Shown piece after piece: positions 28,912-60,912 of a stretch of DNA of 64,000 bases. Location of the stretch: the NCBI GenBank assembly GCA_028282825.1, contig JANQGZ010000013.1, positions 35,586 through 99,585 of the forward strand. The letters are read 5' to 3'. The notes beneath the pieces are model-generated. The model did no database searches. It was not told the origin of the DNA and saw only the letters and a list, made by a program, of their open reading frames with translations. The position numbers and the translations under genes are program-made. Within the stretch, counting starts at the first letter, position 1, and each line of letters opens with the position of its first letter. The stretch comes from SAR324 cluster bacterium. Lineage in GTDB: Bacteria; SAR324; XYD2-FULL-50-16.

Positions 28912-29601
28912 ATGGAAGAATTGAAAGAAAAGTCCGATTATGTATCGTTCATTAAATCAGCCCAGAATAAATCGGATCAGACCGAATGCAAGCGTTGCTG
29001 TACATGTTGCGCAAAAGGAGGCCCTGCCCTGCATAAAGAAGATTTGGATTTGATTCAATCAGGTAAATTACATGGCAGGTTTTTGTTTACCATCCGTGAG
29101 GGGGAACCAGCCAAAGACAATGTCAAAGGAGGTTTGGTTCAAGCCGATACCGACATTATTAAGATCAAGTCAAAAGATGGAACAGATGCTTGTTTGTACG
29201 CAAATTTTACAAACAATCAATGTAGTATATATGAGGACAGACCCATTGAATGCAAGACATTAAAATGCTGGGACACGGCTAAGATTGAAGCATTGTATAA
29301 TAAAAACAGGTTAACAAGAAAAGATATCATTGGAGGAATCCAAGGATTATGGGAACTGGTTGAAGAACATCAGCAAAAATGCTCGTTTTCCAAAGTGAAA
29401 CAGATTATTGAGGAAGCCAAGGGAAAGATTGAGGGGCAAGCTTTGAAGCAACTACTGGAGATAGTGCAATACGACATTTCTATTCGAACCTTGGTGTTAG
29501 AAAAAACAGATACGGATCCAAATCTGATTCCCTTTCTCTTTGGAACCCCTATGCAGTCCATATTGAGGAAGTTGGGAATTGAATTCAAACAGCGTTCTTA
29601 A
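28912..29601 (+). CDS. YkgJ family (CxxCxxCC) cysteine-cluster protein
   Basis: CKRCCTCC...C...CSIYEDRPIEC. Confidence 0.85.
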   Translation: MEELKEKSDYVSFIKSAQNKSDQTECKRCCTCCAKGGPALHKEDLDLIQSGKLHGRFLFTIREGEPAKDNVKGGLVQADTDIIKIKSKDGTDACLYANFTNNQCSIYEDRPIECKTLKCWDTAKIEALYNKNRLTRKDIIGGIQGLWELVEEHQQKCSFSKVKQIIEEAKGKIEGQALKQLLEIVQYDISIRTLVLEKTDTDPNLIPFLFGTPMQSILRKLGIEFKQRS

Positions 29602-29629
29602 CGTAAATAATACATGTTTATATTAATTG

Positions 29630-30745
29630 ATTAACCAACTTTCCGGGTTTTTAAGATATTTATTAATTAGGTTGGTACTACTTTTGTATTTCCCGCTCAG
29701 TCTATAGTCTTCCTGACAGATGAAACAATTCACAACGAATTTACAGTGCCCCCATAAATCCAGCTTTGATACTGGTTCAATGCACTACTCGTTGGTTGAA
29801 ACTTGCATTAGTGATTTATAAAGACTATAAAATGCATACCAACGCGCATGTTAAGGTGATCGATCAATTTGGCAATTTGTTTGTATCGTGGATTCATTGA
29901 TTGCAACCAAAGTGCAAAAAGAGTCTGATCGTCATAAATAATAGATAGTTATTTGACAAATTAATATCAAATAAAGGGTTGATTTTCGAATAATGGTCTG
30001 ATAAACCTCTTTGTCAAAGGAGGTTAAAAAGGGGAAAGCCTTTAAAAACAGCCTTTTTCATGGTTGTTCCAGATCAATTTTTTAATCTCTTTAAGGTTTA
30101 TCAAAACAAAAAGGCCCAATAGTCTACTAGGCATACTAGGTGATTGACCTTGGAAAGGGTATTTAATGGTAATTAAGTTAAATCAGTCACTTGACCAGAG
30201 TTTCCTATTTGTAGATTTAAAAAACGATGCATTAGAGTTGATATTTCTAATTAAATAACATAGCATCGCCTTTTATTTGGGTTAATGAAGAGAACAACAG
30301 ATTGTGGGAGTTTAACCAGCGGTCTTTCTTTCGTCGTTAGTTTTTAACAATCCAATTTGTTTAGGTTCTTAGGCACTACCTGATCAGTCAGTTTGACTTT
30401 TTCGTTGAAGTTATAGGATTGAGTTTGGTAGGCTGCTGAATACAACAGCGATTGAAGCATAATTTGCTGTTACACGATTCACCGACATCCCGTTGAACTT
30501 CCAACGTGAAGGCCGGGAAAGAGTGAAACTGGCAGGCTAACTGGAGACGATATTTTCAAATAAGTTTATTACTCTCCTTTCTTTTTGGTACATATCACCG
30601 GTAAGTCTGTTGGTAAAAATGAAACGCTTTGCCAGCGTATTCAATTATCGCTTGGAACAAGAAAGCTTGTTCCGGGGGATTTTTCAAAAATGTCTCTTTG
30701 GTCATGCTTAGAGGCAAGGTTAGTTTTTATAAAAACTAAACATAA
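29630..30745 (+). ncRNA. Candidate large structured RNA or very long structured 5' leader (not assignable to a known family)
   Basis: No ORF of 60 aa or more across 1.16 kb. Many nested helices, several with G-U pairs in the + orientation (see findings). Confidence 0.5.
30720..30739. promoter_or_regulatory. Perfect 20-bp palindrome just upstream of the porin RBS
   Basis: TTAGTTTTTATAAAAACTAA is its own reverse complement; AAGGAG RBS follows. Confidence 0.6.
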
Positions 30746-30765
30746 TTTCTTTAAAAGGAGTTAAA

Positions 30766-31842
30766 ATGCTTAAGAAATTATTGACAGGTTGTCTGACAAT
30801 CGCAATGATCGGCGCGTTTTCAGCCAGTGCTTCTGCTGAAGCCGAATTTAAATGGACTGGTGACGTGACCGGTAGTTTAATTCAAACTTCTACAAAAGCT
30901 GAAACCACAGGTGATTCTGAAACTCTCACCTACATGGATATGGTAGCTTCTGCTGACTTGGAATTAAGTGTCAAGGTTCCAGGTGATGTATGGACCGGTG
31001 AAGCTAAGTTCGAGTTGGATTTGACAGCTGGTAACACAGAAGATGATGACAAAGAGATCTTAACTTCAGCAGTTAATGTTGATGACCTTTATGTAGTGGC
31101 TTCCAAAGAAGGTTTAGCAATCACTTTTGGTGAATTCGATCCCTTTGGAATTGGTAAAGGTGGTGAATACCTGGGTGAAATCGATGACACTGAACAAGCT
31201 GGTGGATTCGGTGCTTTTAGTGAAAAAGGCCTGGCTATGGTTGGTTTGACTGACGTCGGACTGAATCTGATTTTGGGTATGAACAAGGTTGGTGATGCTG
31301 ATGATAAGGAAGTAGCTTCAGAAACTGTTTTTGGTGCTAACTTTGATAAAGCGTTTGGTGATCTCGCTTTTGCTGTCTCATACTATTCAGCTTCCCGATC
31401 CATCAATGAAGATGATGGTGATGCTACCAAGGATAGTGATAATGATGGTTACAGCGCTTCAGAAATTTCACTGGCTGTTCAATACACATTGGGTCAAATG
31501 GCATTCGCTTTGAATTATACCCAGTATAACGATAAGGATGGTGGTCCGGAAGAGAATGAAAACAAAGACACCTACATGGGACTCATGTTTGATATGGGAC
31601 TCGATGATGGTATGGGTCTGTCAGTTGCATACGAAACCGTAAAGGCAACTAACAACACTGGTGCTACCGGTGCGAAAGACATTGATACTGACAAGACACT
31701 CTTGAACGTTACCTTCCAGTTTATGTTAGGCCCTGTAACAAACTATGTTGCTTACCAAGCCACAACTTCGAAGAAAGACATAGATGATAATGAGGCTGGT
31801 ACAGAAGCTCAGCTTGGTTATTCAATGAGAGTTGCGTTCTAA
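30766..31842 (+). CDS. Outer-membrane beta-barrel, porin-like
   Basis: Signal peptide (ASA|EAE), alternating beta-strand pattern, C-terminal Phe (YSMRVAF), strong AAGGAG RBS and very acidic loops. Confidence 0.8.
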   Translation: MLKKLLTGCLTIAMIGAFSASASAEAEFKWTGDVTGSLIQTSTKAETTGDSETLTYMDMVASADLELSVKVPGDVWTGEAKFELDLTAGNTEDDDKEILTSAVNVDDLYVVASKEGLAITFGEFDPFGIGKGGEYLGEIDDTEQAGGFGAFSEKGLAMVGLTDVGLNLILGMNKVGDADDKEVASETVFGANFDKAFGDLAFAVSYYSASRSINEDDGDATKDSDNDGYSASEISLAVQYTLGQMAFALNYTQYNDKDGGPEENENKDTYMGLMFDMGLDDGMGLSVAYETVKATNNTGATGAKDIDTDKTLLNVTFQFMLGPVTNYVAYQATTSKKDIDDNEAGTEAQLGYSMRVAF

Positions 31843-31873
31843 TAACATCCGTTTTTAGGACACTGTGTTTTTT

Positions 31874-31911
31874 AAGCCACTGCAGGATTACTCCTGCAGT
31901 GGCTTTTTTTT
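31874..31911 (+). terminator. Rho-independent terminator after the porin gene
   Basis: AAGCCACTGCAGGA-TTAC-TCCTGCAGTGGCTT followed by a T-run. Confidence 0.9.
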
Positions 31912-31920
31912 GCAAAAAAA

Positions 31921-32607
31921 CTAACTCAAATCTATGTTTTGCAACTGCTCATAAATGGTTTTAATCTTTTCCTGATGCTCAGGCGGGACAGTTAAAATTT
32001 TTGCCGGATGATTATTGATCAGCCTGGGGTGAATTGTCTCCTCGCTTCCTCTTAATATTTCCTTATTTTCGTTTTCTTCCAGATAGACAATCAAATCTGT
32101 TAAATTTCCTGAGACGCCGAAGGTGTCGATGTGTTCGATGTATTGTTTGAAGAGGTTGTTGACGGATAATACAAAGGGATCCATGTCGGCGAAACCGTCT
32201 TCTTCACAGTATTCTTTGGAGCACATGCTTCTACATTCAAAGGGTCTCACTTCGTAAATCGGACAGGCATCGTCTTCCAGAATCGGACAACTTCCCCAGA
32301 AGGGGTCTGAATCTCCCTCCACAGGTACCGGTTCATCATTTGCGTAAATTTCCGCCAGTCTGTTAATGGTCACTTTCGGTTGAAATCGTTTCTTGCCTTT
32401 TTCGAGCTTCAGTCTGTCAATTAAATCCAACCTGTTGTTTTCCTTTAAATAGTTCATGATTTCATAGGCTTCCAGGCTAGTCATGGTTACATTTCTTGTG
32501 CAGCACCCTGAGCAGCTTTTTTTGCAGGCCAGTTCATAATCTTTAATAAAATCATCATAGATTTGATAGATTTTCTTTAAAATTTCCTTACGTCGTTCTA
32601 AATTCAC
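31921..32607 (-). CDS. YkgJ family cysteine-cluster protein
   Basis: CKKSCSGCC...CPIL..CPIYEVRPFECR. Confidence 0.85.
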   Translation of the reverse strand: MNLERRKEILKKIYQIYDDFIKDYELACKKSCSGCCTRNVTMTSLEAYEIMNYLKENNRLDLIDRLKLEKGKKRFQPKVTINRLAEIYANDEPVPVEGDSDPFWGSCPILEDDACPIYEVRPFECRSMCSKEYCEEDGFADMDPFVLSVNNLFKQYIEHIDTFGVSGNLTDLIVYLEENENKEILRGSEETIHPRLINNHPAKILTVPPEHQEKIKTIYEQLQNIDLS

Positions 32608-35702: not shown

Positions 35703-36490
35703 GAAATCCTCCTTTTTTAAATACTTTAAATAAACCAAGCACCGGGAATACAGAGTAACTGCAAGTGGATGATGGCTATTTCTCCCAAAATTCAATCAGT
35801 AACAGATTTGGTTTTATAAAATGCAATGGCCCTTTAATCATAGCGTATTGCAACACGATCTGTTCCTGAGGCGATCTAACGTTTCCGTTAAACTCCTCCA
35901 TTTACTGAGAAATGTAATAAGTAACAAAATACGCTGCATACTACAACCAAAACTTGGTAAAAACTGGTTTCCAAATATTTTAATTGGGATTCATTTTGCT
36001 TTTAATTACAACCTGTTCGCCATTTAACTGTCCTTTTCCGATAAGACATTTGGAATCTATTCAACTTGGATATGGTACCCGATTAACTCTTCAATAAAAG
36101 CAAACAATGACAATATTGTAGAACAATTCATATAACTATTCACCACAGAGACATAGAGGTCACGGAAAAAAGACTTAACAATAATAAAAGAATAAATATA
36201 TGTCGGATTACCGCCACTGCTGCTGACTTCTGCAAACTCAGGGAGTCAAAAAATCTGGTTAATCTTTACCGATTTTTTAGGCTTGAAGTCACTTCAATTA
36301 ATAAAGCTTCTACCCTTCGTGATGAAAACAAACAGGGGTTAATTAGGCCGAACAGATACCAATTCATTTAATATAGAATGTGAACGCCTGAATCCAAACT
36401 TGATGTTTCAAAAGTTATTACTGAAGTGTATACTCGCAGACAATGATACAACCGGGATCTCACATCAAAAAGCCATGACCAGGAAACTTT

Positions 36491-39400
36491 ATGTCAAAAC
36501 GGATTGAAAGGTTCTGCCAGGAATTTGCTCTTAAGCCCTTTTATTCATTTGTAAATACCAGACTGAATGATCAAGCAACACGGGAACAGATCAAGATTTT
36601 GGAAGCTCTGGAGCCTTTCATCCGCCAGTTTCACGGTAAATTTGTCAATTTCTATGGTTTAGCAAAATCCGGGGCCTTTGATCAAAAAAAATACGAGAAT
36701 CGTCTTTCAGAGTTCTACTCTGAGTTCTGCGAACAAATCTTTGCTCATGATCTGGAAAAGGCTGTTGTCTGGTTGCTGGAACAAGATATTCATGAAAACA
36801 AGAAACTGTTCCCGAACCGGCCAATAGCAAATAATTATCAAGATATTATGCGCAGCCTTAGTGTCTTGATTGAGCTTTTCAAAAGTGTTCCCGTTTCTGA
36901 GCAAGAGACTTATCAAAAGGTTTTCCTTCATGTCCAAAACATACTGTCTCCCACTCTTGACGATGAATTTGAGCAACTTGGAAGGGATCTGTTGGATCAA
37001 CTGAAGGATTTTGATGCGCGTAAAGACGGCATTGAATCTCCAAAATTCGATGCTCTAAAGTTACAGATTCAAAAGACCAATAAGCAGATCCGTCATTTGT
37101 TAATGAGCAACAACACCTTTGTCTCTATCCTCCAGCAAATTACTGAAATAAACAAAGCCCTTAAAACTGTCAGAAAGAATGATTTTGAATCCGTTTTGGG
37201 GGCCAACGACATTGAAAGGTTTTGGAATGGATTGCGGGAATTAGGATACTCAGGCGGTGACAAGTATCTTTATGGCGATTTTGCAAAGTTAAAAAAAGAA
37301 ATAGTCCCCTGGATTCAAGATGCTTTCCCCACAACCTCAGAAGTGTTGATTGCTATTTTACAAAACACCTATCAACTACCCGAACTCCCGTTACTGGATA
37401 AGGAAATTGTCCCGGAGGCAGTCCACTTATACAGTATTCAACTGCTTGGCGAGGTAGGCCTTCGAACCAGAGAATCAATCAATCTGATCCTGGGCTACCA
37501 TACCAGGTTTGTCGATAAAATGGTTAGAGATGGAGCGTTTCAAGCTTTAAGAAAAAACTCCGACCAAGTGCAGGACTATTTTTTAGTATCTTTGGGAAAA
37601 GCTGACGATTATGACCAGATGCTGCAAATAGTAGATAAACATGACTCCATATTTGAGCACATACAAGCAGAAATGCTGGTAAAAACTTTTGGAGAATCAT
37701 TTCGAGCCTCTTTAAAAAGGTTGGATGCCACCACCCAACCGGATGGTATCCTGCTGGGTAATTTCATTCGTTCAGCGTACATGAAACCACCCGGTAACGA
37801 GTTAGAAGATGCTGCACATCTTAAGTCAGAGAAACTTTTGAATCACTTCGAATTCATCAACAACAAGCTTAATAATTTCAAACGGTTCATAGAATCAAAA
37901 ACCAAAGATGGTTTTGTGTGTCTGATCAGGATGTGGGGTCTTAATTATATTGTATCCTGGGCACTGACAGATTTTATTGCCGAAGAACGCCTGTTTACAT
38001 TTATCATCAGGGCTGCGACAGAATCCCCGGTGACAAGAGTCACGACAGTGGGCAGGGTCATTCCGATGCAGGATATTGTCACGTTGCTTTCCAAGGAGCC
38101 GGATGCAAAAGAACTGATCCAAAAACTGATGACCTTTCTTTTAAATTCAAAAATCTCTTTTGATTACAGGCTATTCAGTTCCCTATTTCAGGTTGTCGCT
38201 CAACGGCAGCAGCAACTGAGAAATGGGATCACAATCAGGGATGGATTCAGCGAGCAACGCGGATACACTCAAAGTTTGGAATCGACACCTGTATCCAGTC
38301 AAGGATCAGACCTTCAAGATCCCCACATTTTTCATCCTATCGTCGTTTTCCTGATCACCGTACTTCATATGAAGTTTATTAACATTCCCAAAGACGCGTT
38401 CGTGGAAACCGATATTAGTCTTTACTTAAACTCCCTGGCTGAACATCAAAAGACGCCTGAATTAGGCTACCAGATGTACCTGGCTCATCAATTGATCTCA
38501 TGTATTCCTTATATTAAAGACTTTTCCAGCCAGCATGAAACAATCATCCGTAAAACTATTGCAGATTTAGATGAATTTTATAAACGAAAGAACATCCTGT
38601 TCCACTATCACCGAATAAAAATTCACCGGGCCCCCTCAAAATTGGATCTGGATTTCTGCATGGAGATTCTTGAAGGATTGTCTACAAAAAATCCGGATGA
38701 TGTATTGTTCAACCTGAAGCGATTGATGAAAGGTATTGGAGATGAGGCCATCCCTGATATGGAGGAGTACTTTTCTCATTACAGATCTAAAATCGAAAAT
38801 TTAGGTAAACATTTATCTGCTTTTAAAAAGCGATACCTGAACAAAGAATGGTATGAAATTGCAGAAAGTCCGGAATTTACAAATACAGTGAGGGATTTAC
38901 CTGGAATCGATGCCGATTCCGCAAGGGATATTATTGCCCTTATAAAACTTGTGAATGCTCTTTCCAATTATTGGACCCAGAGGGTTAACGATAGTTTTTT
39001 GCAAGATTATCTTGCAGACGAAGAACAAGAAGCATTTGAAAAAGCCCCAGTGTTGCAAAAATTAGATGTTATCAGGGACAAAAGAGCAACATTCAAAGAT
39101 CTAATAAATCGATTCGACCCGAATCTAGAGCCATACCAACATATTTTCCTTAAAAGACACGTCATACAGGGTGACTGGAATTTCGATTTTTTTGGTTTCT
39201 GGCCTTACTACAAAGAAACCAAATTTGAAGCCTACAACGTGGATCGAAAACTGGCCGAGCTGGAAAGGCTGCTTTTACAGGAACACGTTCGGCAACTTAC
39301 CGGAAATGATTACCAGATTGACCAGATCAACCATATTCATCTCTCACACTTAAGAGATTTGATGGATTGCTTGCAACGAATCATGGTTCACCTGGTTGAT

Positions 39401-41443
39401 GAGGGCCTGTCGCCATCAAAATACTTTTTGGATACAATCGACGTACTTAAAAAGGATCAGTTAACTATATCCCAGTTACATGATATTTTAGGTATTTTAT
39501 ATCATCGCGAGCTTTCCCATATCGACTCATTTATAGCCAACACTTTCGGTCATTTTCCGGCTCAAATTACCAAGGCACTGGGAAGAGAAAACCTGGATTT
39601 TGGATTGGAAAAACTAAATGTGAGCAATGAGGAACTGCTTTACCCTTTGGTGCAGGAAACCGTCCTGGGTAATATTATTGGTGGAATTCAGCCGATTCAT
39701 ATATTGGAAGATCACTTGGGAAAGATGATGCAATTCACATTGCGTTTAAAAAAGCTGGATGCATCAAAACTGATTTTTGATGCCGATGAAAGACCTGCAA
39801 ACAGGCTTTCACCGGTTTATTACGGCTATAAATCTTATGCCCTGCAAACTCTTGCTCAAGACGGATTTAATGTTCCGGCATTAGTTACTATTCCTGTCAA
39901 TTATTATAGTGATCACCCGGAATTCATTTCCAATGCATGTCATACGGAATATAAAACCCATCTAATCCGTCAAATCCTGCAGTTGGAGAATAAAACCAAG
40001 AAGAGGTTTGATTTTAATTTTAGCAAATTGACTGAGGAACAACGGGATTTAATAAATACTTCAAGAAAAGACTCTCACGTATCCGGACAGACCCATTCAC
40101 AACTGTTTTTGTCAGCCAGAAGTGGTTCTTATCGGTCTATGCCAGGGATTCTGGGTACTGTTCTCAATATCGGTTTCAAAGACGTATTGAATCCTGAGTT
40201 TTGTTCTCAAAACATGCGTTTTGACTTAAACACCTACCGCATGTTCATTAGCACCTTTGGTAATGTGGTATTAGGTATTAACGAAACCTCTTTTTCCCAA
40301 ATCGTCGACGAGAGCAAAAAAGAGATTGAAGACAAGTTTTCCAGAAAAATTAAATGGGAAGATCTAAGTGATGGGCAAATAATCAATATAATCAAAGGGT
40401 TTAAGCAGCTAGTCGAATCTCGAAATCAAAAACTTCCCGATGAAAAACAGTATCATATTGATTGGAATGATCCTTTGGAACTTCTGGCAATATCCACAAT
40501 TGGTGTTTGGAATTCCTGGACTTCATCTGCCGCAGAAAGGCTAAGAAACTTCCTGGATATTTCTCCTGACTGGAAGACCCCCGTGACACTAATGGAAATG
40601 AAGCAGGCTGATAAAAATCCCCGGTCATTTAGTGCTATTTTGTTTTCGGGTGATCCTCAAGGTAAGATCGACAGACCTCATGGAGACCTGTTGTTTGGGA
40701 GGCCAGGCGAAGATATTGCTTCGGGCCTGGCATCGGGAGGTGAACATCTGGAAAACCTGGAAACAAAAGAACCGGAACTGTATTCACAGATAGCAGGCCT
40801 TCTGGAACAAATTAAGATCAATAAGGGCTATATCAACGTAGATGTGGAAATGGTCGGGGAGTTTGATCCCGAAACGGAGCACATGGAATTGTTTGTAGTG
40901 CAAGAAAGGCAGATGCCTTTGGGTACACGAGGGGAAAGTGAGGATTACAGGCTCACACCAACAGATACCCCTCCGGTTGCAACCGGGAAAGGTGTCAATG
41001 GCGGCGTACAACACGGTGTGCTTTTAGATGGCATTGCTCAGGAGTATTACGATCTCCGCGAGACTGTTAAGCAGGTCCGTATTAAATTAGGCTCAAAAGA
41101 CGAATTTCACGGTCCGGGAATATTTCTTTTAATGAAATACGTTACACCTGAAGAAGCTTTGAAGATGAATATAGAAGGTGTGGACGGGGTGATTACATCA
41201 AAAATTGGTAAATCAAGTCATGCCTCAATAGCAGCTAAAAGGGACGGGAAACTGTTTGTTTGCGAGGCGTCTGTGGTATTAAAAGAGAAGGATTGGTTTA
41301 TTGGTGATCGTAAAATCAACCTGGGGAATTCTGCTGATCCGGATCTTTTTACCATTGTCGGCAATCCCAAATCGGTCTCTCCTTACAGCGGAAACATCTA
41401 TGATGGCTGCTTACCTTTAACAAAAGTGGTGAAAAAACGATAG
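36491..41443 (+). CDS. Giant PPDK-related protein: ~1100-aa unknown N-terminus + ATP-grasp + phospho-His swivel domain, no pyruvate-binding barrel
   Basis: GYKSYAL..GFNVP, SARSG..SMPGILGTVLNIG, GEDIASG, LFVVQER and ITSKIGKSSHASIAA (His~1577). The protein ends ~70 aa later. Confidence 0.8.
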   Translation: MSKRIERFCQEFALKPFYSFVNTRLNDQATREQIKILEALEPFIRQFHGKFVNFYGLAKSGAFDQKKYENRLSEFYSEFCEQIFAHDLEKAVVWLLEQDIHENKKLFPNRPIANNYQDIMRSLSVLIELFKSVPVSEQETYQKVFLHVQNILSPTLDDEFEQLGRDLLDQLKDFDARKDGIESPKFDALKLQIQKTNKQIRHLLMSNNTFVSILQQITEINKALKTVRKNDFESVLGANDIERFWNGLRELGYSGGDKYLYGDFAKLKKEIVPWIQDAFPTTSEVLIAILQNTYQLPELPLLDKEIVPEAVHLYSIQLLGEVGLRTRESINLILGYHTRFVDKMVRDGAFQALRKNSDQVQDYFLVSLGKADDYDQMLQIVDKHDSIFEHIQAEMLVKTFGESFRASLKRLDATTQPDGILLGNFIRSAYMKPPGNELEDAAHLKSEKLLNHFEFINNKLNNFKRFIESKTKDGFVCLIRMWGLNYIVSWALTDFIAEERLFTFIIRAATESPVTRVTTVGRVIPMQDIVTLLSKEPDAKELIQKLMTFLLNSKISFDYRLFSSLFQVVAQRQQQLRNGITIRDGFSEQRGYTQSLESTPVSSQGSDLQDPHIFHPIVVFLITVLHMKFINIPKDAFVETDISLYLNSLAEHQKTPELGYQMYLAHQLISCIPYIKDFSSQHETIIRKTIADLDEFYKRKNILFHYHRIKIHRAPSKLDLDFCMEILEGLSTKNPDDVLFNLKRLMKGIGDEAIPDMEEYFSHYRSKIENLGKHLSAFKKRYLNKEWYEIAESPEFTNTVRDLPGIDADSARDIIALIKLVNALSNYWTQRVNDSFLQDYLADEEQEAFEKAPVLQKLDVIRDKRATFKDLINRFDPNLEPYQHIFLKRHVIQGDWNFDFFGFWPYYKETKFEAYNVDRKLAELERLLLQEHVRQLTGNDYQIDQINHIHLSHLRDLMDCLQRIMVHLVDEGLSPSKYFLDTIDVLKKDQLTISQLHDILGILYHRELSHIDSFIANTFGHFPAQITKALGRENLDFGLEKLNVSNEELLYPLVQETVLGNIIGGIQPIHILEDHLGKMMQFTLRLKKLDASKLIFDADERPANRLSPVYYGYKSYALQTLAQDGFNVPALVTIPVNYYSDHPEFISNACHTEYKTHLIRQILQLENKTKKRFDFNFSKLTEEQRDLINTSRKDSHVSGQTHSQLFLSARSGSYRSMPGILGTVLNIGFKDVLNPEFCSQNMRFDLNTYRMFISTFGNVVLGINETSFSQIVDESKKEIEDKFSRKIKWEDLSDGQIINIIKGFKQLVESRNQKLPDEKQYHIDWNDPLELLAISTIGVWNSWTSSAAERLRNFLDISPDWKTPVTLMEMKQADKNPRSFSAILFSGDPQGKIDRPHGDLLFGRPGEDIASGLASGGEHLENLETKEPELYSQIAGLLEQIKINKGYINVDVEMVGEFDPETEHMELFVVQERQMPLGTRGESEDYRLTPTDTPPVATGKGVNGGVQHGVLLDGIAQEYYDLRETVKQVRIKLGSKDEFHGPGIFLLMKYVTPEEALKMNIEGVDGVITSKIGKSSHASIAAKRDGKLFVCEASVVLKEKDWFIGDRKINLGNSADPDLFTIVGNPKSVSPYSGNIYDGCLPLTKVVKKR

Positions 41444-41445
41444 CC

Positions 41446-42177
41446 TTACTCATGATCAAACAAATAGCCTATCGCCCGGAGGCTCTTAAAATATTGCGGT
41501 TTTTTGGGATTGTCCTCAAAGTACTTCCGAAATCGAACGATAAAATTGTCAATGGTTCGAGTCTCAGTTCTCCTGGTATAGCCCCAGCCAATCTCAAGCA
41601 ATTTAGCCCTGGATAAAGGCTTTCCCTTGTTATTGATAAACAGCTTCAGTAACTTTATCTCCTGCTCTGTCAGGTTCACTTTTCCGGACTTACAATAAGC
41701 CACTGCCTGGGCAAAATCGATACTGTTAGTTCCGAAGTTGTACTGCTCAGCGCTTGGTAAAACTTCTGATTCTTGCACCAGGCTAGAATCCTGATTCCAG
41801 GAAAAACGGGTTAACAGTCGTTCGACTCGCAATAGAAATTCATTAAGATCAAAAGGTTTCTGCAAGTAATCATCCACGCCATAATGAAAGCATTCGACTT
41901 TATCATCCGGGGAGCTCTTCGCGGAAAGCACTAAAATCGGGATTTTCTCATCTTCCAGACGAATGCTTCGCAGAACAGAGACTCCATCGATTTCCGGGAG
42001 CATGATGTCCAGTACAATCAAGTCCGGTTTCCATTCCTTCCAATCTTGCAAGGCAGTCATTCCGTCAACGGCAATCCTAACGTCATACCCTTGCATTGTA
42101 AGATTTAAACGAAGACCTTCAGCTATGTGATCATCGTCTTCCACAACCAACACTCTTTTATGTTCTTGCTTTTCCAT
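41446..42177 (-). CDS. OmpR/PhoB family response regulator
   Basis: VEDD, LDIMLP, KPF and winged HTH (TRTIDNFIVRFRKYFE, GYLF). Confidence 0.93.
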   Translation of the reverse strand: MEKQEHKRVLVVEDDDHIAEGLRLNLTMQGYDVRIAVDGMTALQDWKEWKPDLIVLDIMLPEIDGVSVLRSIRLEDEKIPILVLSAKSSPDDKVECFHYGVDDYLQKPFDLNEFLLRVERLLTRFSWNQDSSLVQESEVLPSAEQYNFGTNSIDFAQAVAYCKSGKVNLTEQEIKLLKLFINNKGKPLSRAKLLEIGWGYTRRTETRTIDNFIVRFRKYFEDNPKKPQYFKSLRAIGYLFDHE

Positions 42178-42182
42178 AGTTT

Positions 42183-43160
42183 TTAGTCAGACCGGGTACG
42201 TTGGTGCAAAATTGGATCATAAGGCAAGACTAATGTGAATTGAGATCCTTTACCCTTGCCCCTGCTTTCTACTTTCAGTTTTCCGCTATAGATTCTTGCT
42301 ATATTTTCAGCAACATACAGCCCCAAGCCACTTCCTTTTGCCGACATATCATCCGAAGTACCTACCTGGTAAAACTTCCTAAATATTTTTTTAAGTTCAG
42401 ATTTCTCGATACCGATTCCATTATCCAGGAAACGCACCTGGATATTGTTTTTTTGTCGCTGAAATATGATGTCAATTTTAGGTTTATCCGAATCATTGTA
42501 GGTGATGGCATTAGTAATAATATTCATTAAGAACATTTCATATAAAGGAAGATTGATATTAAACATGAAATCACCGTCAGTCTGGTTTTCCACAGTGATT
42601 TCACTTTTATCAAACAAATGACCGTTCTCACTTAAAAAATCTTTTGTAGCCAGTACCAGCTCTATAATCGCTTTCTCACTGGAATAAGTACTGCTTTCAA
42701 TGCGGGCTAAATTCAGGATTTGACTGACATTATCGGACAGCCGTTCGGCATCCTGAATCATAAAATCGATGTATTTAAGCTGGTCCGATCTTGGCAGTTC
42801 ATATTTGACAAAGGTCTCAAGGTATAACTTGAGTGATGTAACAGGTGTTTTTAGTTCGTGGGTAAAATTATTGATGAAATTGTTTTGCAGTCTGTAAAGC
42901 TGCATGATTTTCTGATTGTATACAAAGATCATGAATATACAGATCAAAATAAATCCCACCAGAATGGACAGTACCATGATCACAATCCAGGTCTGTGGTT
43001 CCAACGCCTGCTTTGCATCAATATTGAACCGCTTGATAACGGCCCTGAGACCTTCGCTAACCTCCAAATACCAATAAATATAAAGTACCAGCGACAGAAA
43101 AAGGGCAATGATAGATGATATCAAAGTGATAATAGGATACATCCATTTTGACTTATTCAT
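42183..43160 (-). CDS. Sensor histidine kinase with two TM helices and a short loop
   Basis: THELKTP H-box, NAITY, DNGIG, IFRKFY and GSGLGL. Confidence 0.93.
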   Translation of the reverse strand: MNKSKWMYPIITLISSIIALFLSLVLYIYWYLEVSEGLRAVIKRFNIDAKQALEPQTWIVIMVLSILVGFILICIFMIFVYNQKIMQLYRLQNNFINNFTHELKTPVTSLKLYLETFVKYELPRSDQLKYIDFMIQDAERLSDNVSQILNLARIESSTYSSEKAIIELVLATKDFLSENGHLFDKSEITVENQTDGDFMFNINLPLYEMFLMNIITNAITYNDSDKPKIDIIFQRQKNNIQVRFLDNGIGIEKSELKKIFRKFYQVGTSDDMSAKGSGLGLYVAENIARIYSGKLKVESRGKGKGSQFTLVLPYDPILHQRTRSD

Positions 43161-47682: not shown

Positions 47683-49065
47683 ATGGAACCGGAAGTTGTC
47701 GAGCAGGGTCAATCTGTCAATGATGCGACCATTAACAGAGAACAAGAGGAAAGCACCTCGAACGAAAGAGTTGTCCCGAAAGATTTTGCCCAAAGGCTGG
47801 CGGCAAAAATTGCTTCCATCAATGAAAGGGAATTGGATGAAGAAGTAGCATCCAGCCAGGTAGCATCAATAATCTATCGAAATATGAATTCAGCGGAAAT
47901 GTTCCCCTATTTCATTGAAACGATAGAGGCTTTACTACGCAACGAAGACAACCAAAGATTTGCGGCAACAACCTGGACGGCTGTTTTATGGCATGAAGAC
48001 GAACACCCCGAATATCGCCAATTCCTTGAAAAAATTCTGGATTTCGTAATCTCGGGTCATTCAAAAGCAGACAGACCGCCCTACGAAAGTGATGATATCG
48101 AAGGTGAATTCTCTGCTTATGCTTATTATCTTGGAGAGTCCTTTATTCAGATGATGAAGCTGAATAGTGATCTCTACAATGTCTTAACGGATATCTACAG
48201 CTACGTTATCCGCACTGAGATGCATCGGGATTTAAAAAGGAAAAAAGACGAAGCGGATAAAAAAAGAGTCATTACCGGCAGAAAAAGAGATCGCGATGGA
48301 GATATTGTCAATCCCAAGAAGCTTTACGATGATATTGTGGATTACATTTCCCAGCGAGGTACCTTCCGCTCTGATACCCTCAACCAGAAGAACCCCAACG
48401 AGTACATTATTATCCTGGCAGACCGTATGCGAAGTACACGACGCTACGTGATTCAGGACATCATGAACCGGTTCGCACTTGAGAAAAAGAAACAACTTGA
48501 AAAAGAACTCAGGGAAAGGGAAGCAAGTGCTGAAGAAGTAATTACTGCCGTCACTCCTTTCAAACACGGCCTGTATTTGTTTTGGCTGGAAAAGAGATAT
48601 AATTTCAAATATCTGGCAGTAGAAAAAGTAAGAATTACATTACAAATTTTTGCCATATTCCTGGGATTAGGGGCCGTGGGTGTTGGATTTCTGGAGCTGG
48701 CTCCTGTGAGTCTGATTGAAGGTCTTTTGATTGGAGCAATGATGACAGGATATGCAAAGATGTTCTGCTCTCGTTACGTCTTTAATGCGTTTTATCCCAA
48801 AGATGTAACTGTTGAACTGGAAAAAGACGTGGGCGCATTCACCCCGGTCTTTCGAAAGATGTCGCTGCAGCAAATGAACTCTTTTATGCTGAAACAGATC
48901 AAAGAGCCTGACAATGGCTTACTGCTGCACCTGTTACCGGAGTATGTCCGCTATATTTTTGCTGTAATGCCGGACCGCACTGAAATTCTGATGACCAAGG
49001 AAAACATTAATGAATTGATGGAACGGGTTGAAGTAAATCTCAGCAAATTTCAGAGAGGACGTTAG
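47683..49065 (+). CDS. Hypothetical protein, helical, with a two-TM hairpin in the C-terminal third
   Basis: 460-aa ORF with hydrophobic IFAIFLGLGAVGVGFL and LIEGLLIGAMM segments; no recognisable motif. Confidence 0.7.
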   Translation: MEPEVVEQGQSVNDATINREQEESTSNERVVPKDFAQRLAAKIASINERELDEEVASSQVASIIYRNMNSAEMFPYFIETIEALLRNEDNQRFAATTWTAVLWHEDEHPEYRQFLEKILDFVISGHSKADRPPYESDDIEGEFSAYAYYLGESFIQMMKLNSDLYNVLTDIYSYVIRTEMHRDLKRKKDEADKKRVITGRKRDRDGDIVNPKKLYDDIVDYISQRGTFRSDTLNQKNPNEYIIILADRMRSTRRYVIQDIMNRFALEKKKQLEKELREREASAEEVITAVTPFKHGLYLFWLEKRYNFKYLAVEKVRITLQIFAIFLGLGAVGVGFLELAPVSLIEGLLIGAMMTGYAKMFCSRYVFNAFYPKDVTVELEKDVGAFTPVFRKMSLQQMNSFMLKQIKEPDNGLLLHLLPEYVRYIFAVMPDRTEILMTKENINELMERVEVNLSKFQRGR

Positions 49066-49071
49066 ATACGA

Positions 49072-49935
49072 TCAACCGGAAAATTCATTATAAGGGTGGC
49101 GATGATCCGGACCCTTCATTTCTATAAAATCACACATCCCTTTTAAACGAGAATATATTCTGGAATAGACTCGTTGTTCAAGCGTCTCCTTTTTTTGTTT
49201 TTCTTTAGCTCCCTCTTTATCTGTTCTTACAAAGACAGGTTCCACATAGGTTGTGCTCTTTTTTTCTGTGTAGTTTGTTGTAAAAATTGTGGTTTTCCGC
49301 ATATTGTATCGATTGGAGATAATCGAATCCAGAATGGCTATTTCCCAATCGCTTTTTCGACCTTTTCCCAACTCATCAACAACAAGAATTTCAGCATTAT
49401 TGATTTTCTCCAGTAAACCGGATTCGGACAGACCCTTGTCATACCCTGTTTTAATTTCACTGAGCAAACTGGAAAACTCCCTGAAAATCCCGGGAATCCC
49501 GTGATTCAACGTGAAATCTCTTAAAATGGTACTCACCAATCTTGTTTTGCCAACACCGACTCCTCCCATAAAAAGAAGTCCTTTGCGATTGCCATTTTTA
49601 TAATTCCTGAAGAAGAAAGATGCTGTTCGCAGAGCCTCTTCCAATGAGGGATCACCAGAAACATCGAAATTTTTAAAGGTAGCATCAAAAAACTGACCGG
49701 GAATTTGCGCATTGTTAAAAAGCGTAATCCGTTGATCCAGATTTTTACATTCACAGGGAATAGCTTGTTCCCTTTCCTGTTCGTCATATTGAAAAAGAAA
49801 GCCGGTACCGTCACAGGTTTTACATTCGCCAAAACAACTCGGACAATATTCCGCCCAGGCATACTGGCCTTTTGCGACTACCTGAATCTTTGTATCTTCA
49901 CAATTTCTACACTTTCTTTTTACCTGACTACCCAT
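49072..49935 (-). CDS. DnaC/DnaI/IstB-like AAA+ ATPase with N-terminal Cys-rich Zn fingers
   Basis: CRNC, CPSC, CKTC and CEC; Walker A GGVGVGKT, Walker B VVDELG, IISNRYN, TTN and RIYSRL. Confidence 0.85.
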   Translation of the reverse strand: MGSQVKRKCRNCEDTKIQVVAKGQYAWAEYCPSCFGECKTCDGTGFLFQYDEQEREQAIPCECKNLDQRITLFNNAQIPGQFFDATFKNFDVSGDPSLEEALRTASFFFRNYKNGNRKGLLFMGGVGVGKTRLVSTILRDFTLNHGIPGIFREFSSLLSEIKTGYDKGLSESGLLEKINNAEILVVDELGKGRKSDWEIAILDSIISNRYNMRKTTIFTTNYTEKKSTTYVEPVFVRTDKEGAKEKQKKETLEQRVYSRIYSRLKGMCDFIEMKGPDHRHPYNEFSG

Positions 49936-56454: not shown

Positions 56455-59400
56455 ATGTCGCCTAAGCAAGACAAAAAAATCAAAGAATTACATTCACGAA
56501 TTCAAGAGATCCCAATAGCCATAGTCGGGATGTCAGCTATTTTCCCGGAATCAAAAAATTTACAGGCATATTGGGACAATATTGTCAAAGAGGTCGACTG
56601 TATCATCGATGTTCCTGAAACCCGCTGGAATTTGGAAGACTACTATGATCCTGATCCCGAAAAAGAAGACAAAACCTATTGTAAACGTGGCGGATTTATT
56701 CCTGAGATAGATTTTGATCCAATGGAATTCGGCCTTCCCCCCAATATTCTGGAAGTTACCGATGTTCACCAGCTCCTTTCTCTTGTTTTGGCGAAGGAGG
56801 TATTGCGAGATGGCGGATATGAAAACGCCTCCGACGAATTAAGACAAAATATCGGTGTCATCCTGGGTGTTGGTGGTGGGCAGAAGATGATGATACCACT
56901 GGTTTCCAGGCTTCAATACCCTGTTTGGGAACGGGTGTTGAAGAACGCAGGTGTTTCCGATGGCGATACCTCAAAAATCGTTGAAAAAATTAAAAAAGCA
57001 TATGTTGGATGGGAAGAAAACGCCTTCCCGGGCGCATTGGGCAATGTTATTGCCGGCAGAATAGCCAATAGACTGGATTTAGGCGGTACAAACAGCGTTG
57101 TAGATGCAGCGTGTGCGAGCTCTCTCAGTGGTATTCGCATGGCAATCAGCGAGTTGCTGGAATACAGAGCTGACATGATGATCACAGGTGGGGTAGACAC
57201 CGATAACTCACCCTACATGTATCTATGCTTCAGCAAAACCCAGGCTTTCACAGCTGCCGATAAATCAACCCCATTTAGTGCTAATTCCGACGGTATGATC
57301 ATGGGCGAAGGTATCGGGATGCTGTTGTTAAAACGATTGAAAGATGCCGAGCGAGATAACGATCGGATTTATGCTGTCATCAAAGGAATGGGATCTTCCA
57401 GCGATGGAAAATTCAAGAGTATTTATGCTCCCAGGGCCAAAGGCCAGGAATTGGCCCTTAAACGTGCTTATAGAGACGCTGCAATAGATCCGGGCACTAT
57501 CGGTTTGCTGGAAGCTCACGGAACGGGTACTGCTGCCGGTGATTTGGCTGAAGTAACGGCTTTAAAAAACTTCTTTTCCCAACAGGACAAGGAAAAGCAA
57601 CATATCGCCATGGGGAGCGTTAAATCACAAATCGGTCATACCAAAAATGCCGCCGGTGCCGCCGGAATAATCAAAATGGCGCTCTCCCTGTATCATAAGA
57701 CCCTTCCAGCCACTATCAATATTGATGAGCCAAACCGGGATCTTGATCTTGAAAATTCACCCTTCTTTTTAAATACCAAAGTAAGACCCTGGTTCCATTA
57801 CTCTGATAAACATCCCAGACGAGCCGGTCTTAGTGCGTTTGGTTTTGGGGGCACCAATTTTCACTATATTCTGGAAGAACATCAATCTAAAGCGGAAGGC
57901 AACTACCGAATGCATCAGGTCTCATATCCGGTTATTTTGAATGCTAAAACAATCGATGAATTAGTTGCTGCCTGCAAGGAAACCACCGCGCTGTTAAGCG
58001 ACAAAAAGGCCGACCTAAAACTGGCGCATTTAGTTGATGAACAAAAGAATGCAAAGATACCTCAATCAAATGCCCGACTGGGATTTGTAGCAGTAAACGC
58101 CAAGGAAGCCGTTGATTTTCTGACAAAAGCAATTGAAAAATTGGAGTCAGAGCCTGATGCAGAGGCCTGGAATACACGAAAAGGTTTGTATTTTCAAAAG
58201 AAGGGAATCGATCCCAAAGGCAAGGTGGTAGCCCTTTTTGCTGGGCAGGGATCACCCTATCTGAACATGGGAAAAGAACTGATTAATAATTTCCCCATAT
58301 TGATGAAAAATCAGCAGTTTATGGATCGATTGTTTATTGAGGACAACCGACCGCCACTATCCTCGATTCTTTATCCGCGACCGGTGTTTGACAAAAAAAC
58401 CGCGAAGCAGCAGGAAAAGGAGTTAAATTTAACTCAAAACGCGCAACCTTCCATTGGTGTTTTTAGCGCCGGACAATACCAGATTCTCAATCAAGCCGGC
58501 TTTAAACCTGACTTCACGGCAGGGCACAGCTTTGGTGAGTTAACCGCACTTTGGGCGGCAGGCGTTCTCAACGACGAGGATTATTTTAAGCTTGCCAAAG
58601 CCAGAGGGAAAGCCATGGCCGCCCCGGATGATCCTAATTTTGATGCCGGTGCCATGGTGGCGGTTATGGGAGATGTTAAAAACCTTGCAGATGATATCAA
58701 AGATTTCAAGGGGGTGACCATTGCCAACTATAACTCAAAGAGCCAGGTCGTTATTGCAGGCCCCACGGAAGAAGTAATAAAAGCGCAAGAAGCAATTAAG
58801 GATAAATATCGAACAATACTATTAGGAGTTTCTGCAGCCTTTCACACCGAGTTGGTAGGACATGCCCAGAAACCGTTTGCAGAAGATATTGAAAAAGCAA
58901 GTTTCAAAAAACCGGCGTGTAAAGTGTATTCCAATGCTTCAGCCAAACCTTATCCGCAAACACCAAAATCGATTCAAAAAACCTTAAAGGATCATATCCT
59001 TAACTCAGTCCAGTTCAAACAGGAAATAGAAAATATATACGATGATGGTGGCAGGATTTTTGTAGAATTCGGGCCTCAAAGCATTCTAACCCGACTGGTA
59101 GACAATATTTTAGAAGGGAAATCTTATATATCTGTGGCGCTAAACGCAAATGCAAAAAAAGAGAGCGATCGTCAATTTAGAGAAGGTATTGTCAAACTCA
59201 AAGTGGCCGGTCTTTCTTTATCCGATTTCGACCCCTATCAATATAAGCCCGCTGTTTCGGACAAGAAGAAAAATGCGCTTACTCTGAAAATCAGTGGAAC
59301 CAATTATGTGAGTGAGAAAACCAGAAGAGTGTTTGAAGATGCCTTACAGGATGGCTTTAAGATTAAGCAGGCTGAAGCAGTAACCAGTCTGACGACTCAA

Positions 59401-60912
59401 AACAATCCCCAAAAACCCATAATGAGTAATTCAGAAAACGAAACAAACAAAAAAGTGTCAGTGACACCGCAAGGTGATAGTCTGACATATGCGATGCAGA
59501 GTCTGGAAAGAGGACTGGCAAACTTTTACAATCACCAGAATGAAACATTGCGTATTCACGAGCAGTTCCTGAATAATCAATCGGAATATTCCAGAAGTTT
59601 CTTCCAGATTATGCAGCAACAGGCTCAAACCGGAGCTCCTACGTTGAGCAAGGATGTGTCGCAAAGTATAGGTCAATTTCACTCTCACCAGGCCGAAACC
59701 TTACGTGTACATGAGCAGTATCTAAGGCATCAAACAGAATACTCGAAGCATTCATTTGAACTGATCAGACAGCAACAGGCGGCTTTTACCGGTGGTTCTC
59801 AAATAGCAGCACCCCAGTCCGTGACCATCACAGATTATCAACCGCCTGCTTACCCGGCTCCGACCCCACCTAAAATAGAACAAATTAAACCCATTACACC
59901 GCAGCCCGTTCAACCGGCAGCAACACCACCTGCTCAACCAGTTCCTCCTGCGCAGACTGTTGAAGAGCCGGTAGTTGAATCGATCAGTGCTGATACGTTG
60001 ACCAAGGCTTTGTTGGAGGTGGTTGCTGAAAAAACGGGTTACCAGTCCGACATGTTGGAATTAAGCATGGACATGGAGGCAGATCTTGGTATCGATTCCA
60101 TCAAGCGTGTTGAAATCCTGAACGGCATCCAGGAACAATTACCCGAACTGCCTCAGCTTAACCCGGAAGAATTGGCAGAACTCAGAACACTGGAACAGAT
60201 CGCAGACTATATGAAGACTCACGCGGGTGGATTTGAACCCGCAAAATCACAACCGGAACCGGAACCACAGGTAGCCCAGGGGCCTGCTCCTGCAGCTGAC
60301 AGGAATGGATTTGTTGGTGTTTTGCTGAATGTAATCAGTGAAAAAACCGGCTATCAGGCCGATATGCTTGAAATGGATATGGATATGGAAGCAGACCTGG
60401 GAATCGATTCGATTAAACGCGTCGAAATCCTGAACGGGTTGCAGGAACAAATGCCGGATATGCCATCTGTCAATCCGGAAGAACTTGCAGAATTAAGGAC
60501 ATTACAGCAAATTGCAGACTACGTGATGGGCAAATCTGTGATAGAGGAAGCTTCCGCTCCCGTGCAATCTGCTCCACAAGCTGATCAGACCAGTGGACTG
60601 GAAATATTGACTAAAGCCTTATTGGAAGTTGTCAGCGAAAAAACAGGATATCTGGAAGATATGCTTGAGCTTTCCATGGACCTGGAAGCGGACCTTGGCA
60701 TTGACTCCATTAAAAGGGTGGAGATTTTAAACGGTATTCAGGAAAAGCTACCGGATATGCCGGAGACAAACCCCGAAGAGCTTGCTGAACTGCGTACCTT
60801 GGAACAGATTGTTAATAAAATGATTCAGGCTGGAAGTCCGATCACTGCGGCTAAAACTGAAAATGTAAAAAAAAAACAAGTAATCGCCAACACGGCATCG
60901 ATCGCAGGTTAG
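56455..60912 (+). CDS. pfaA: PfaA/HglE-like iterative PKS, KS-MAT-ACPx3 part
   Basis: DAACASS, EAHGTGT, GHTK, GHSFGE (AT), AAFH and three LGIDSIKRVEIL ACP motifs. Confidence 0.9.
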   Translation: MSPKQDKKIKELHSRIQEIPIAIVGMSAIFPESKNLQAYWDNIVKEVDCIIDVPETRWNLEDYYDPDPEKEDKTYCKRGGFIPEIDFDPMEFGLPPNILEVTDVHQLLSLVLAKEVLRDGGYENASDELRQNIGVILGVGGGQKMMIPLVSRLQYPVWERVLKNAGVSDGDTSKIVEKIKKAYVGWEENAFPGALGNVIAGRIANRLDLGGTNSVVDAACASSLSGIRMAISELLEYRADMMITGGVDTDNSPYMYLCFSKTQAFTAADKSTPFSANSDGMIMGEGIGMLLLKRLKDAERDNDRIYAVIKGMGSSSDGKFKSIYAPRAKGQELALKRAYRDAAIDPGTIGLLEAHGTGTAAGDLAEVTALKNFFSQQDKEKQHIAMGSVKSQIGHTKNAAGAAGIIKMALSLYHKTLPATINIDEPNRDLDLENSPFFLNTKVRPWFHYSDKHPRRAGLSAFGFGGTNFHYILEEHQSKAEGNYRMHQVSYPVILNAKTIDELVAACKETTALLSDKKADLKLAHLVDEQKNAKIPQSNARLGFVAVNAKEAVDFLTKAIEKLESEPDAEAWNTRKGLYFQKKGIDPKGKVVALFAGQGSPYLNMGKELINNFPILMKNQQFMDRLFIEDNRPPLSSILYPRPVFDKKTAKQQEKELNLTQNAQPSIGVFSAGQYQILNQAGFKPDFTAGHSFGELTALWAAGVLNDEDYFKLAKARGKAMAAPDDPNFDAGAMVAVMGDVKNLADDIKDFKGVTIANYNSKSQVVIAGPTEEVIKAQEAIKDKYRTILLGVSAAFHTELVGHAQKPFAEDIEKASFKKPACKVYSNASAKPYPQTPKSIQKTLKDHILNSVQFKQEIENIYDDGGRIFVEFGPQSILTRLVDNILEGKSYISVALNANAKKESDRQFREGIVKLKVAGLSLSDFDPYQYKPAVSDKKKNALTLKISGTNYVSEKTRRVFEDALQDGFKIKQAEAVTSLTTQNNPQKPIMSNSENETNKKVSVTPQGDSLTYAMQSLERGLANFYNHQNETLRIHEQFLNNQSEYSRSFFQIMQQQAQTGAPTLSKDVSQSIGQFHSHQAETLRVHEQYLRHQTEYSKHSFELIRQQQAAFTGGSQIAAPQSVTITDYQPPAYPAPTPPKIEQIKPITPQPVQPAATPPAQPVPPAQTVEEPVVESISADTLTKALLEVVAEKTGYQSDMLELSMDMEADLGIDSIKRVEILNGIQEQLPELPQLNPEELAELRTLEQIADYMKTHAGGFEPAKSQPEPEPQVAQGPAPAADRNGFVGVLLNVISEKTGYQADMLEMDMDMEADLGIDSIKRVEILNGLQEQMPDMPSVNPEELAELRTLQQIADYVMGKSVIEEASAPVQSAPQADQTSGLEILTKALLEVVSEKTGYLEDMLELSMDLEADLGIDSIKRVEILNGIQEKLPDMPETNPEELAELRTLEQIVNKMIQAGSPITAAKTENVKKKQVIANTASIAG
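59998..60830 (+). repeat. Three tandem ACP-domain repeats
   Basis: EKTGY..DMLE..MDxEADLGIDSIKRVEILNG..PEELAELRTL repeated three times (Ser codons at 60097, 60409, 60706). Confidence 0.92.
60867..60876 (+). other. A10 homopolymer, candidate slippage / -1 frameshift site
   Basis: GTA AAA AAA AAA C lies in the overlap of the 0 frame (stop at 60912) and the -1 frame (open from 60861). Confidence 0.65.

Follow-up and report, generated by a model that had tools for sequence, protein, structure and literature searches.

A barrel-less PPDK-type dikinase module behind a conserved helical core in a SAR324 cluster bacterium

What does a dikinase module of the pyruvate, phosphate dikinase (PPDK) type act on when it carries no phosphoenolpyruvate (PEP)/pyruvate TIM barrel and follows some 1,100 residues of helical sequence? 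The question is raised by P0001, a 1650-aa protein encoded on a 64,000-nucleotide stretch of the SAR324 cluster bacterium assembly GCA_028282825.1 (contig JANQGZ010000013.1, positions 35,586 to 99,585), which was analysed as a whole and is referred to here as the window. Enzymes that combine an ATP-grasp domain with a swivel phosphohistidine domain are few in kind, and every acceptor domain added to the set has brought a different chemistry, as in PEP synthesis, starch phosphorylation, rifampin inactivation, aromatic catabolism, and VadK signalling. The analysis confirmed P0001 as a barrel-less PPDK-type dikinase module behind a conserved helical core; the sections below first establish which domains it has, that the barrel has been lost, that the catalytic residues are conserved, and that core and module always occur together, and then turn to the proposed function and its alternatives.

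Architecture of P0001

P0001 is encoded by a single open frame, with an AGGA-type ribosome-binding site upstream of its ATG and a weak promoter-like site (9/12) 5' of the gene at 36407-36434. Its parts are as follows:

36491..41443, forward strand: whole open reading frame of P0001, a single open frame of 1650 aa
36491..38317, forward strand: residues 1-609, clade-specific helical extension, absent from distant relatives, in which residues ~40-400 resemble ARM/HEAT/TOG-type solenoids
38318..39760, forward strand: residues 610-1090, conserved core, helical apart from a beta-hairpin at ~882-908, putative acceptor site or second active site
39803..40954, forward strand: residues ~1105-1488, PPDK-type ATP-grasp nucleotide-binding domain, identified by profile, PDB, and fold matches
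40955..41440, forward strand: residues ~1489-1650, swivel phosphohistidine carrier domain, with the His1577 codon at 41219-41221

The relationship of P0001 to PPDK is far beyond chance. The NCBIfam model for PPDK, TIGR01828, matched residues 1184-1449 at E 4.7e-37, with a score of 127.4 bits that remains below the curated cut-off of 843, while the short-PPDK model NF004531 matched at E 8e-23 (80.8 bits, below the cut-off of 456) and the Pfam family PEP-utilizers was placed on residues 1546-1597 (E 2e-4, under the cut-off). In whole-protein scans with Pfam, NCBIfam, and PADLOC, the dikinase part was the sole match and no defence family was found. A phmmer search of the PDB with P0001 returned 11 distinct sequences, all of them PPDKs (best E 5e-24), and a profile of the C-terminal 560 residues likewise recovered PPDKs only (E 1e-30), with no rifampin phosphotransferase or PEP synthase sequence at E<=0.01.

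The catalytic residues are preserved at motif level. In the phmmer alignment, GKSSHAS of P0001 falls on GMTSHAA of PPDK, identifying His1577 as the catalytic His and Ser1575 as the occupant of the regulatory Thr position within the (T/S)-S-H-A swivel motif. A MAFFT alignment of family members with three canonical PPDKs (the genome's own, P0042, and P0043) showed that P0001 and the PPDKs have in common the Lys of the GGKG motif (K1114), the L-S-x-R-S-G...S-M-P-G motif with R1210, Y-R-x-F, G-E-D, D1451-x-E1453, Q1471-x-R1473, and S-H-A. The P0001 motif residues presumably correspond to those examined by mutagenesis in PPDK, namely K22, R92, D321, E323, Q335, and R337. The original prediction, made from the sequence alone, had PPDK nucleotide-binding motifs beginning at residue ~1110 and an intact swivel His (KSSHAS) with Ser in place of the regulatory Thr, and both observations are borne out by these alignments. 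Three features set six family members apart from the three PPDKs: 24 extra residues ahead of the RSG motif, a linker of reduced length between the domains, and additional sequence within the carrier domain. Across the 20-sequence family His1577 never varies, and 27 of 28 wider relatives retain it.

Structure prediction led to the same domain assignment. An AlphaFold model of residues 600-1650, based on a 28-row alignment, forms one compact unit with a mean predicted local distance difference test score (pLDDT) of 87.7 and a predicted template modelling score (pTM) of 0.86. The ATP-grasp domain occupies positions 507-889 of this model and the carrier domain positions 890-1047, so the modelled order runs from the helical N-terminus through the ATP-grasp to the His domain, with no domain between the last two. 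With the same model, Foldseek retrieved PPDKs at E 1e-20, and VIA-align superposed residues 1106-1646 of P0001 on residues 19-518 of maize PPDK (1vbg) with Z 25.5. The ATP-grasp domain was also aligned with rifampin phosphotransferase (5hv1, Z 20.6) and HpeI (9goj, Z 15.4), and the carrier domain with the PPDK phosphoryl carrier domain 2fm4 (Z 12.1).

The barrel is missing from the chain. No PF02896 (PEP/pyruvate barrel) match was found in P0001 by the Pfam scan; the protein stops 73 residues past His1577, where the three canonical PPDKs run into the barrel, and its C-terminal end aligns to PPDK position ~518. Since it has no barrel, P0001 cannot be a stand-alone PPDK, in agreement with the original prediction on both points. 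The genome (8 Mb in 132 contigs, 92% complete) has a canonical full-length PPDK of its own, in a 917-aa frame on contig C96, as well as three other PPDK_N proteins without a barrel, encoded on C8, C12, and C55. A split PPDK completed by a separately encoded barrel was also considered and rejected, because all five PF02896 barrels of the genome lie in multidomain frames of 578-917 aa and none is an orphan that could serve as a partner.

The helical core and its family

A word-indexed search yielded 23 proteins, most of them of ~1650 aa at 54-99% identity and three shorter (1125-1461 aa); one relative is a Margulisbacteria protein of 1690 aa at 44% identity. Among the 88 species of the phylum covered, the long form is confined to P0001's own genus (all five genomes) and a second genus (all three); the remaining matches were far weaker, restricted to the dikinase part of the query, and located in shorter frames. 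A profile built from the N-terminal alignment and searched exhaustively against 1.84 billion representatives gave 15 hits, each a cluster, at E<=0.001, comprising two short fragments (167 and 332 aa) and 13 long proteins (>=1486 aa). The matched region contracts with distance: P0025-P0029 match from query position ~300-325 on and P0024 from ~380, P0031-P0033 (1505-1630 aa) match only at ~610-1085, and three giants (3598-4477 aa, one named Omnitrophica) carry the region mid-chain.

PPDK_N comes immediately C-terminal to the core in P0031-P0033 and the giants. Of the eight long relatives examined with both model libraries, seven (P0025 and P0031-P0036) gave a PPDK_N and/or TIGR01828 match and P0026 did not, and P0024 and P0027-P0029 align through the module motifs; every long protein found with the core also has a PPDK-like module. 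All 24 non-giant relatives stop 67-107 residues past the His column, which makes the missing barrel a family trait. The expectation that annotation would call such proteins PPDK does not hold for the close family, where the only name in use is 'hypothetical protein', and applies only to distant relatives, which are named 'PEP/pyruvate-binding domain-containing protein' or 'pyruvate,orthophosphate dikinase'. One orthologue from the second genus (G013:C186:5530-10474) is divided between two frames, the break falling on the catalytic His motif (residue ~1575); a frameshift or an assembly error could be the cause.

A further search with the core of P0033 added two proteins, P0044 and P0045, the latter being a partial PPDK_N protein with the JGI name PPDK. 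By hhalign, the N-terminal profile was aligned to P0045 with a probability of 90.7% (E 1.3e-6, query positions 622-1097), with R-x3-H, K-R-H, and Y-x-E-T-K-F in register, and more weakly to P0044 (54.6%). The alignment to P0045 indicates that the core reaches beyond the 15 clusters; the family is nevertheless rare and only weakly connected to other PPDK_N proteins. A survey of Omnitrophota giant proteins places PPDK_N among their 20 most frequent domains (bioRxiv 10.1101/2023.11.21.568195).

The region upstream of the module, which the original prediction had treated as one partner domain of ~1100 residues, is not uniform. Mean conservation within the close family is 0.56 for residues 1-300 and 0.64 for 301-609, but 0.73 for 610-1090, compared with 0.70 for 1105-1488 and 0.76 for 1489-1650; 117 of the 481 core columns are invariant, and residues 1-600 are the least conserved part of the protein. 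Because of this regional pattern, and because distant relatives match only from query position ~300 or ~610 on, the ~480-residue core stands out as the true partner of the module. The part of the earlier proposal that holds is therefore residues ~610-1090, whereas residues 1-600 appear, from the same comparison, to be a clade-specific add-on.

Within the core, R687, R708, H712, H890, Y907, E909, G972, and some hydrophobic positions are invariant in all 28 aligned relatives, K911 is kept in at least 90% of them, and the basic/His set remains invariant down to 24% identity. The motifs R687, R708-x3-H712, K-R-H890, and Y907-x-E-x-K911 sit directly upstream of the PPDK-type module. This constraint, together with the constant co-occurrence with the module, would fit a role as acceptor or second site, and the invariant basic/His set suggests an anionic acceptor.

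Database searches gave no name to this region. Residues 1-1100 had no sequence match in Pfam, NCBIfam, or the PDB; Pfam searches with eight N-terminal sequences at E<=5 returned nothing consistent (best family in two of the eight), and the core itself had no Pfam match at E<=5 and no PDB sequence match at E<=10 (N-terminal profile, 0 hits). An AlphaFold2 model of residues 1-1100 (20-row alignment) was all-helical, as had been anticipated, with a mean pLDDT of 76; residues 1-430 reached ~90, while the most conserved stretches, 572-714 and 889-907, were poorly modelled. When folded together with the module, in the model of residues 600-1650, the core was confident and showed a beta-hairpin at the 882-908 motif.

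Foldseek with the 1-1100 model, a check proposed with the original prediction, retrieved only generic solenoids (FANCI, importins) at a TM score of ~0.1. In VIA-align, residues ~40-400 resembled CAP-G, TOG, and armadillo proteins at Z <= 8.5, a value under the meaningful level for helical-repeat proteins, and residues 948-1090 matched generic helix bundles only (Z ~8.7). As the core was searched within larger models and not alone, no claim of a new fold is made for it. The best ESM Atlas scores, 0.85 and 0.84, pointed to an unnamed cluster and to 'PPDK family' clusters, and are taken as leads only. Residues 1-600 are probably a solenoid-like extension for docking or regulation.

Proposed mechanism and its alternatives

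Placed among known systems, P0001 combines a familiar chemistry with an unfamiliar partner. PPDK (EC 2.7.9.1; TIGR01828; 1kbl, 1vbg, 5jvj) shares the ATP-grasp and swivel His domains, their order, and their motifs with P0001, but differs in its TIM barrel, in its regulatory Thr where P0001 has Ser, and in lacking the 1100-residue helical N-terminus. P0001 also resembles rifampin phosphotransferase and the two-component kinases HpeHI and MarK, in which ATP-grasp and swivel His are redirected to a non-pyruvate acceptor via a dedicated substrate domain. In rifampin phosphotransferase, the substrate-binding domain lies between the ATP-grasp and the His domain, whereas in P0001 the additional domain sits at the N-terminus and nothing separates the ATP-grasp from the His domain. 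Glucan and phosphoglucan water dikinases carry CBM45 or CBM20 starch-binding modules and have the His domain followed by a C-terminal ATP-grasp; P0001, in contrast, has no carbohydrate-binding module or other Pfam match in residues 1-1100, and its ATP-grasp precedes the His domain. The substrate-binding domain of rifampin phosphotransferase is described as a separate one (PMC4844700).

The closest barrel-less counterparts are VadK (Rv1127c) and the 'short PPDK' group (NF004531, PRK05878), in which, as in P0001, the ATP-grasp and the catalytic His are kept. Members of this group are two-domain proteins of ~490-530 aa, a description that a 1650-aa protein does not fit. According to its published description, VadK consists of the ATP-binding and His domains only, with a measured mass of ~50.5 kDa, and autophosphorylates on its His with ATP and Mg (PMC13400623); P0001 has in addition the conserved 480-residue core and the 600-residue extension. 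By its core motifs and module order, P0001 belongs instead with an unnamed helical-core superfamily (P0024-P0036, P0045, and the Omnitrophota giants), within which its clade is distinguished by the 600-residue extension of its own, by a non-signal-like N-terminus, and by having no fused or adjacent special glyceraldehyde-3-phosphate dehydrogenase (GAPDH). While the type of chemistry is known, no description of a family with a helical core and a barrel-less module was found in the literature searched, where the acceptor domain and the architecture are equally undescribed.

On balance, P0001 is probably a PPDK-derived, ATP-driven swivel-phosphohistidine phosphotransferase with its acceptor site in the helical core. 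In this mechanism, the ATP-grasp domain (~1105-1488) would bind ATP and pyrophosphorylate or phosphorylate His1577 on the carrier domain, which would then deliver the phosphoryl group to a second site. That site would be the helical core (~610-1090), standing in place of the absent PEP/pyruvate TIM barrel, where R687, R708, H712, H890, Y907, E909, and K911 would bind an anionic acceptor, provided that, as we infer, the helical domain binds an acceptor at all. The folding of residues 600-1650 as a single compact unit (pTM 0.86) supports this mechanism, and swivel-His chemistry can survive the loss of the barrel, since the barrel-less VadK autophosphorylates. A complex prediction of the core (610-1090) with the carrier domain (1489-1650) was graded as 'weak support' and, the two being pieces of one chain in any case, was set aside; it gave a median score of 0.43 against 0.00 for the best control; the runs agreed in at least 96% of contacts, with a partner pLDDT of at least 77. 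In the calibration of this score, 116 of 157 solved complexes and 2 of 215 mismatches passed the mark, and values <=0.60 were obtained for only 18 of the 157 solved complexes and for both passing mismatches.

Several observations weigh against the phosphotransferase proposal. The acceptor of P0001 is hypothetical, the 'cluster' of invariant core residues is one of alignment columns, and there is no conserved neighbourhood across the lineages compared (the two genera and a Margulisbacteria-type locus). One relative, P0026 (1522 aa), has Pro in place of the catalytic His and lacks R1210 and D1451/E1453, yet keeps the core motifs. By its sequence P0026 may represent a pseudoenzyme branch, and this degenerate protein implies that the core may have a role without phosphotransfer. 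Finally, the N-termini of P0025 and P0031-P0036 are hydrophobic and, by eye, signal- or anchor-like (lipoprotein-like ...LLAAC in P0025), which is not the case in P0001; such N-termini are odd for an ATP-dependent cytoplasmic enzyme.

The main rival, which we regard as unlikely, is a regulatory histidine kinase resembling VadK, which would only autophosphorylate and whose phosphorylation state would control partners held by the helical or solenoid N-terminus, with no small-molecule acceptor involved. VadK, itself a barrel-less PPDK relative that autophosphorylates, interacts with metabolic enzymes (PMC13400623); P0001 matches the NF004531 model, and its residues ~40-400 are similar to protein-binding alpha-solenoids, if only at the Z values given above. 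The 80.8 bits obtained with NF004531 are, however, far under the cut-off, VadK has no counterpart of the 1100-residue N-terminus, and the solenoid part is precisely the least conserved one, absent from distant relatives; moreover, the invariant Arg/His/Lys set of the core seems more suggestive of ligand binding or catalysis than of docking. It is scarcely credible that P0001 is a PPDK that has degenerated into a pseudoenzyme scaffold or that works, as a split enzyme, with a separately encoded barrel: P0026 does show that catalytic degeneration has occurred in one relative, but no catalytic motif is missing from P0001 or from 26 of its 27 aligned relatives, the genome contains no orphan barrel, and the loss of the barrel is family-wide (24 of 24 non-giant relatives).

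Two further alternatives depend on neighbouring genes, of which two lie next to P0001 in the window:

41446-42177, reverse strand: OmpR-type response regulator, convergent downstream, a neighbour only
42183-43160, reverse strand: histidine kinase, convergent downstream, a neighbour only

With such neighbours, P0001 might be a phosphorelay donor, passing phosphate from ATP via His1577 to H712 or H890, acting in the manner of a histidine-containing phosphotransfer (HPt) domain, and on to a neighbouring two-component receiver, a reading we hold to be very improbable. The convergent regulator and kinase are syntenic in all five loci of the own genus, histidine-kinase and receiver matches adjoin the gene in all three loci of the second genus, and in the two of these scanned with Pfam (L013 and L015) a cNMP-binding hybrid histidine kinase lies directly upstream on the same strand; H712 and H890, besides, are invariant. 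Yet this genome is very rich in two-component proteins, with at least 158 stretches matching hybrid histidine kinases or receivers, so that chance adjacency is not rare and the proximity is weak evidence. The two genera are also arranged differently, the Margulisbacteria-type locus, where the neighbours include ilv, surE, and genes for a glycosyltransferase-like protein and a phosphoglucomutase, shows no two-component gene out to 8 kb, and the N-terminus has no match to HPt or any other signalling family at E<=5.

The other neighbour-based alternative, an improbable one, is a dikinase of the triose-phosphate stage, in which the ligand of the core would be a glycolytic intermediate, for instance 3-phosphoglycerate, and the enzyme would act together with GAPDH. 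In two of the three giants (P0034, 3801 aa; P0035, 4477 aa, which also has two CsrA domains), a GAPDH-like domain with the SCTT cysteine motif kept lies 600-900 residues past the module. The core aligns, with the same motifs, to the PPDK_N protein P0045, and a type I GAPDH gene is found 4.8 kb downstream of P0001. However, this is a regular type I GAPDH (439.8 bits with TIGR01534, cut-off 367.2), encoded on the other strand, five genes away, and only in the own genus; no GAPDH was found near the gene in the three second-genus loci or in the Margulisbacteria-type locus, and the 480-aa PRK08289-type GAPDH of the genome lies elsewhere with no dikinase beside it. P0001 thus has no GAPDH paralogue of its own, adjacent or fused, and a GAPDH link is not evident in its clade, where it is loose or absent.

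The boldest form of the phosphotransferase proposal, which we consider rather improbable, would make the core a new catalytic fold that passes the phosphoryl group from the swivel His to an anionic central metabolite, in the extreme as a 3-phosphoglycerate (phosphate) dikinase supplying 1,3-bisphosphoglycerate to GAPDH. If true, such a step would cost two phosphoanhydride bonds and be an effectively irreversible, undescribed step of lower glycolysis or gluconeogenesis, common to the P0001 clade and the GAPDH-fused giants. The GAPDH link in part of the superfamily in this way provides a concrete, testable hypothesis on central carbon metabolism. For the phosphotransferase proposal in general, the core and module occur both in free-standing proteins of 1500-1700 aa and within Omnitrophota giants, and identification of the acceptor would reveal either an enzyme activity or a type of metabolic regulator not previously known, together with a function for a domain that recurs in the giants.

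Other features of the locus

The window is ordinary chromosome. Upstream of P0001 lies a divergent amino-acid ABC transporter, and past the downstream histidine kinase follow NUDIX, MBL, and rhomboid genes and the type I GAPDH gene. DNA of the locus was found in coral and coral-reef metagenomes, with at least one third of the sampled words present in three studies, one of which may be the source of the assembly; no RNA data set was listed among the matches.

In the second genus (L013:4580-9968 and L015:273-5495), two large proteins without a Pfam match (594 aa and 1117-1124 aa) are encoded convergently to the dikinase gene, and a 1001-aa frame on contig C30 of the window's genome encodes a relative of the larger one at 27% identity. 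Elsewhere in the window, two paralogous CxxCxxCC (PF03692) genes lie on opposite strands on either side of a porin gene (28912-32607), an arrangement kept in related genomes. At 47683-49935, a gene for a 460-aa protein without a Pfam match stands beside an IstB-like ATPase gene, both being 77-97% identical in two related genomes. Further downstream, on the forward strand (56455-63350), a KS-AT-ACP protein of 1485 aa is followed by a KR-DH protein of 766 aa, a pair that looks like a polyunsaturated fatty acid- or polyketide-type synthase.

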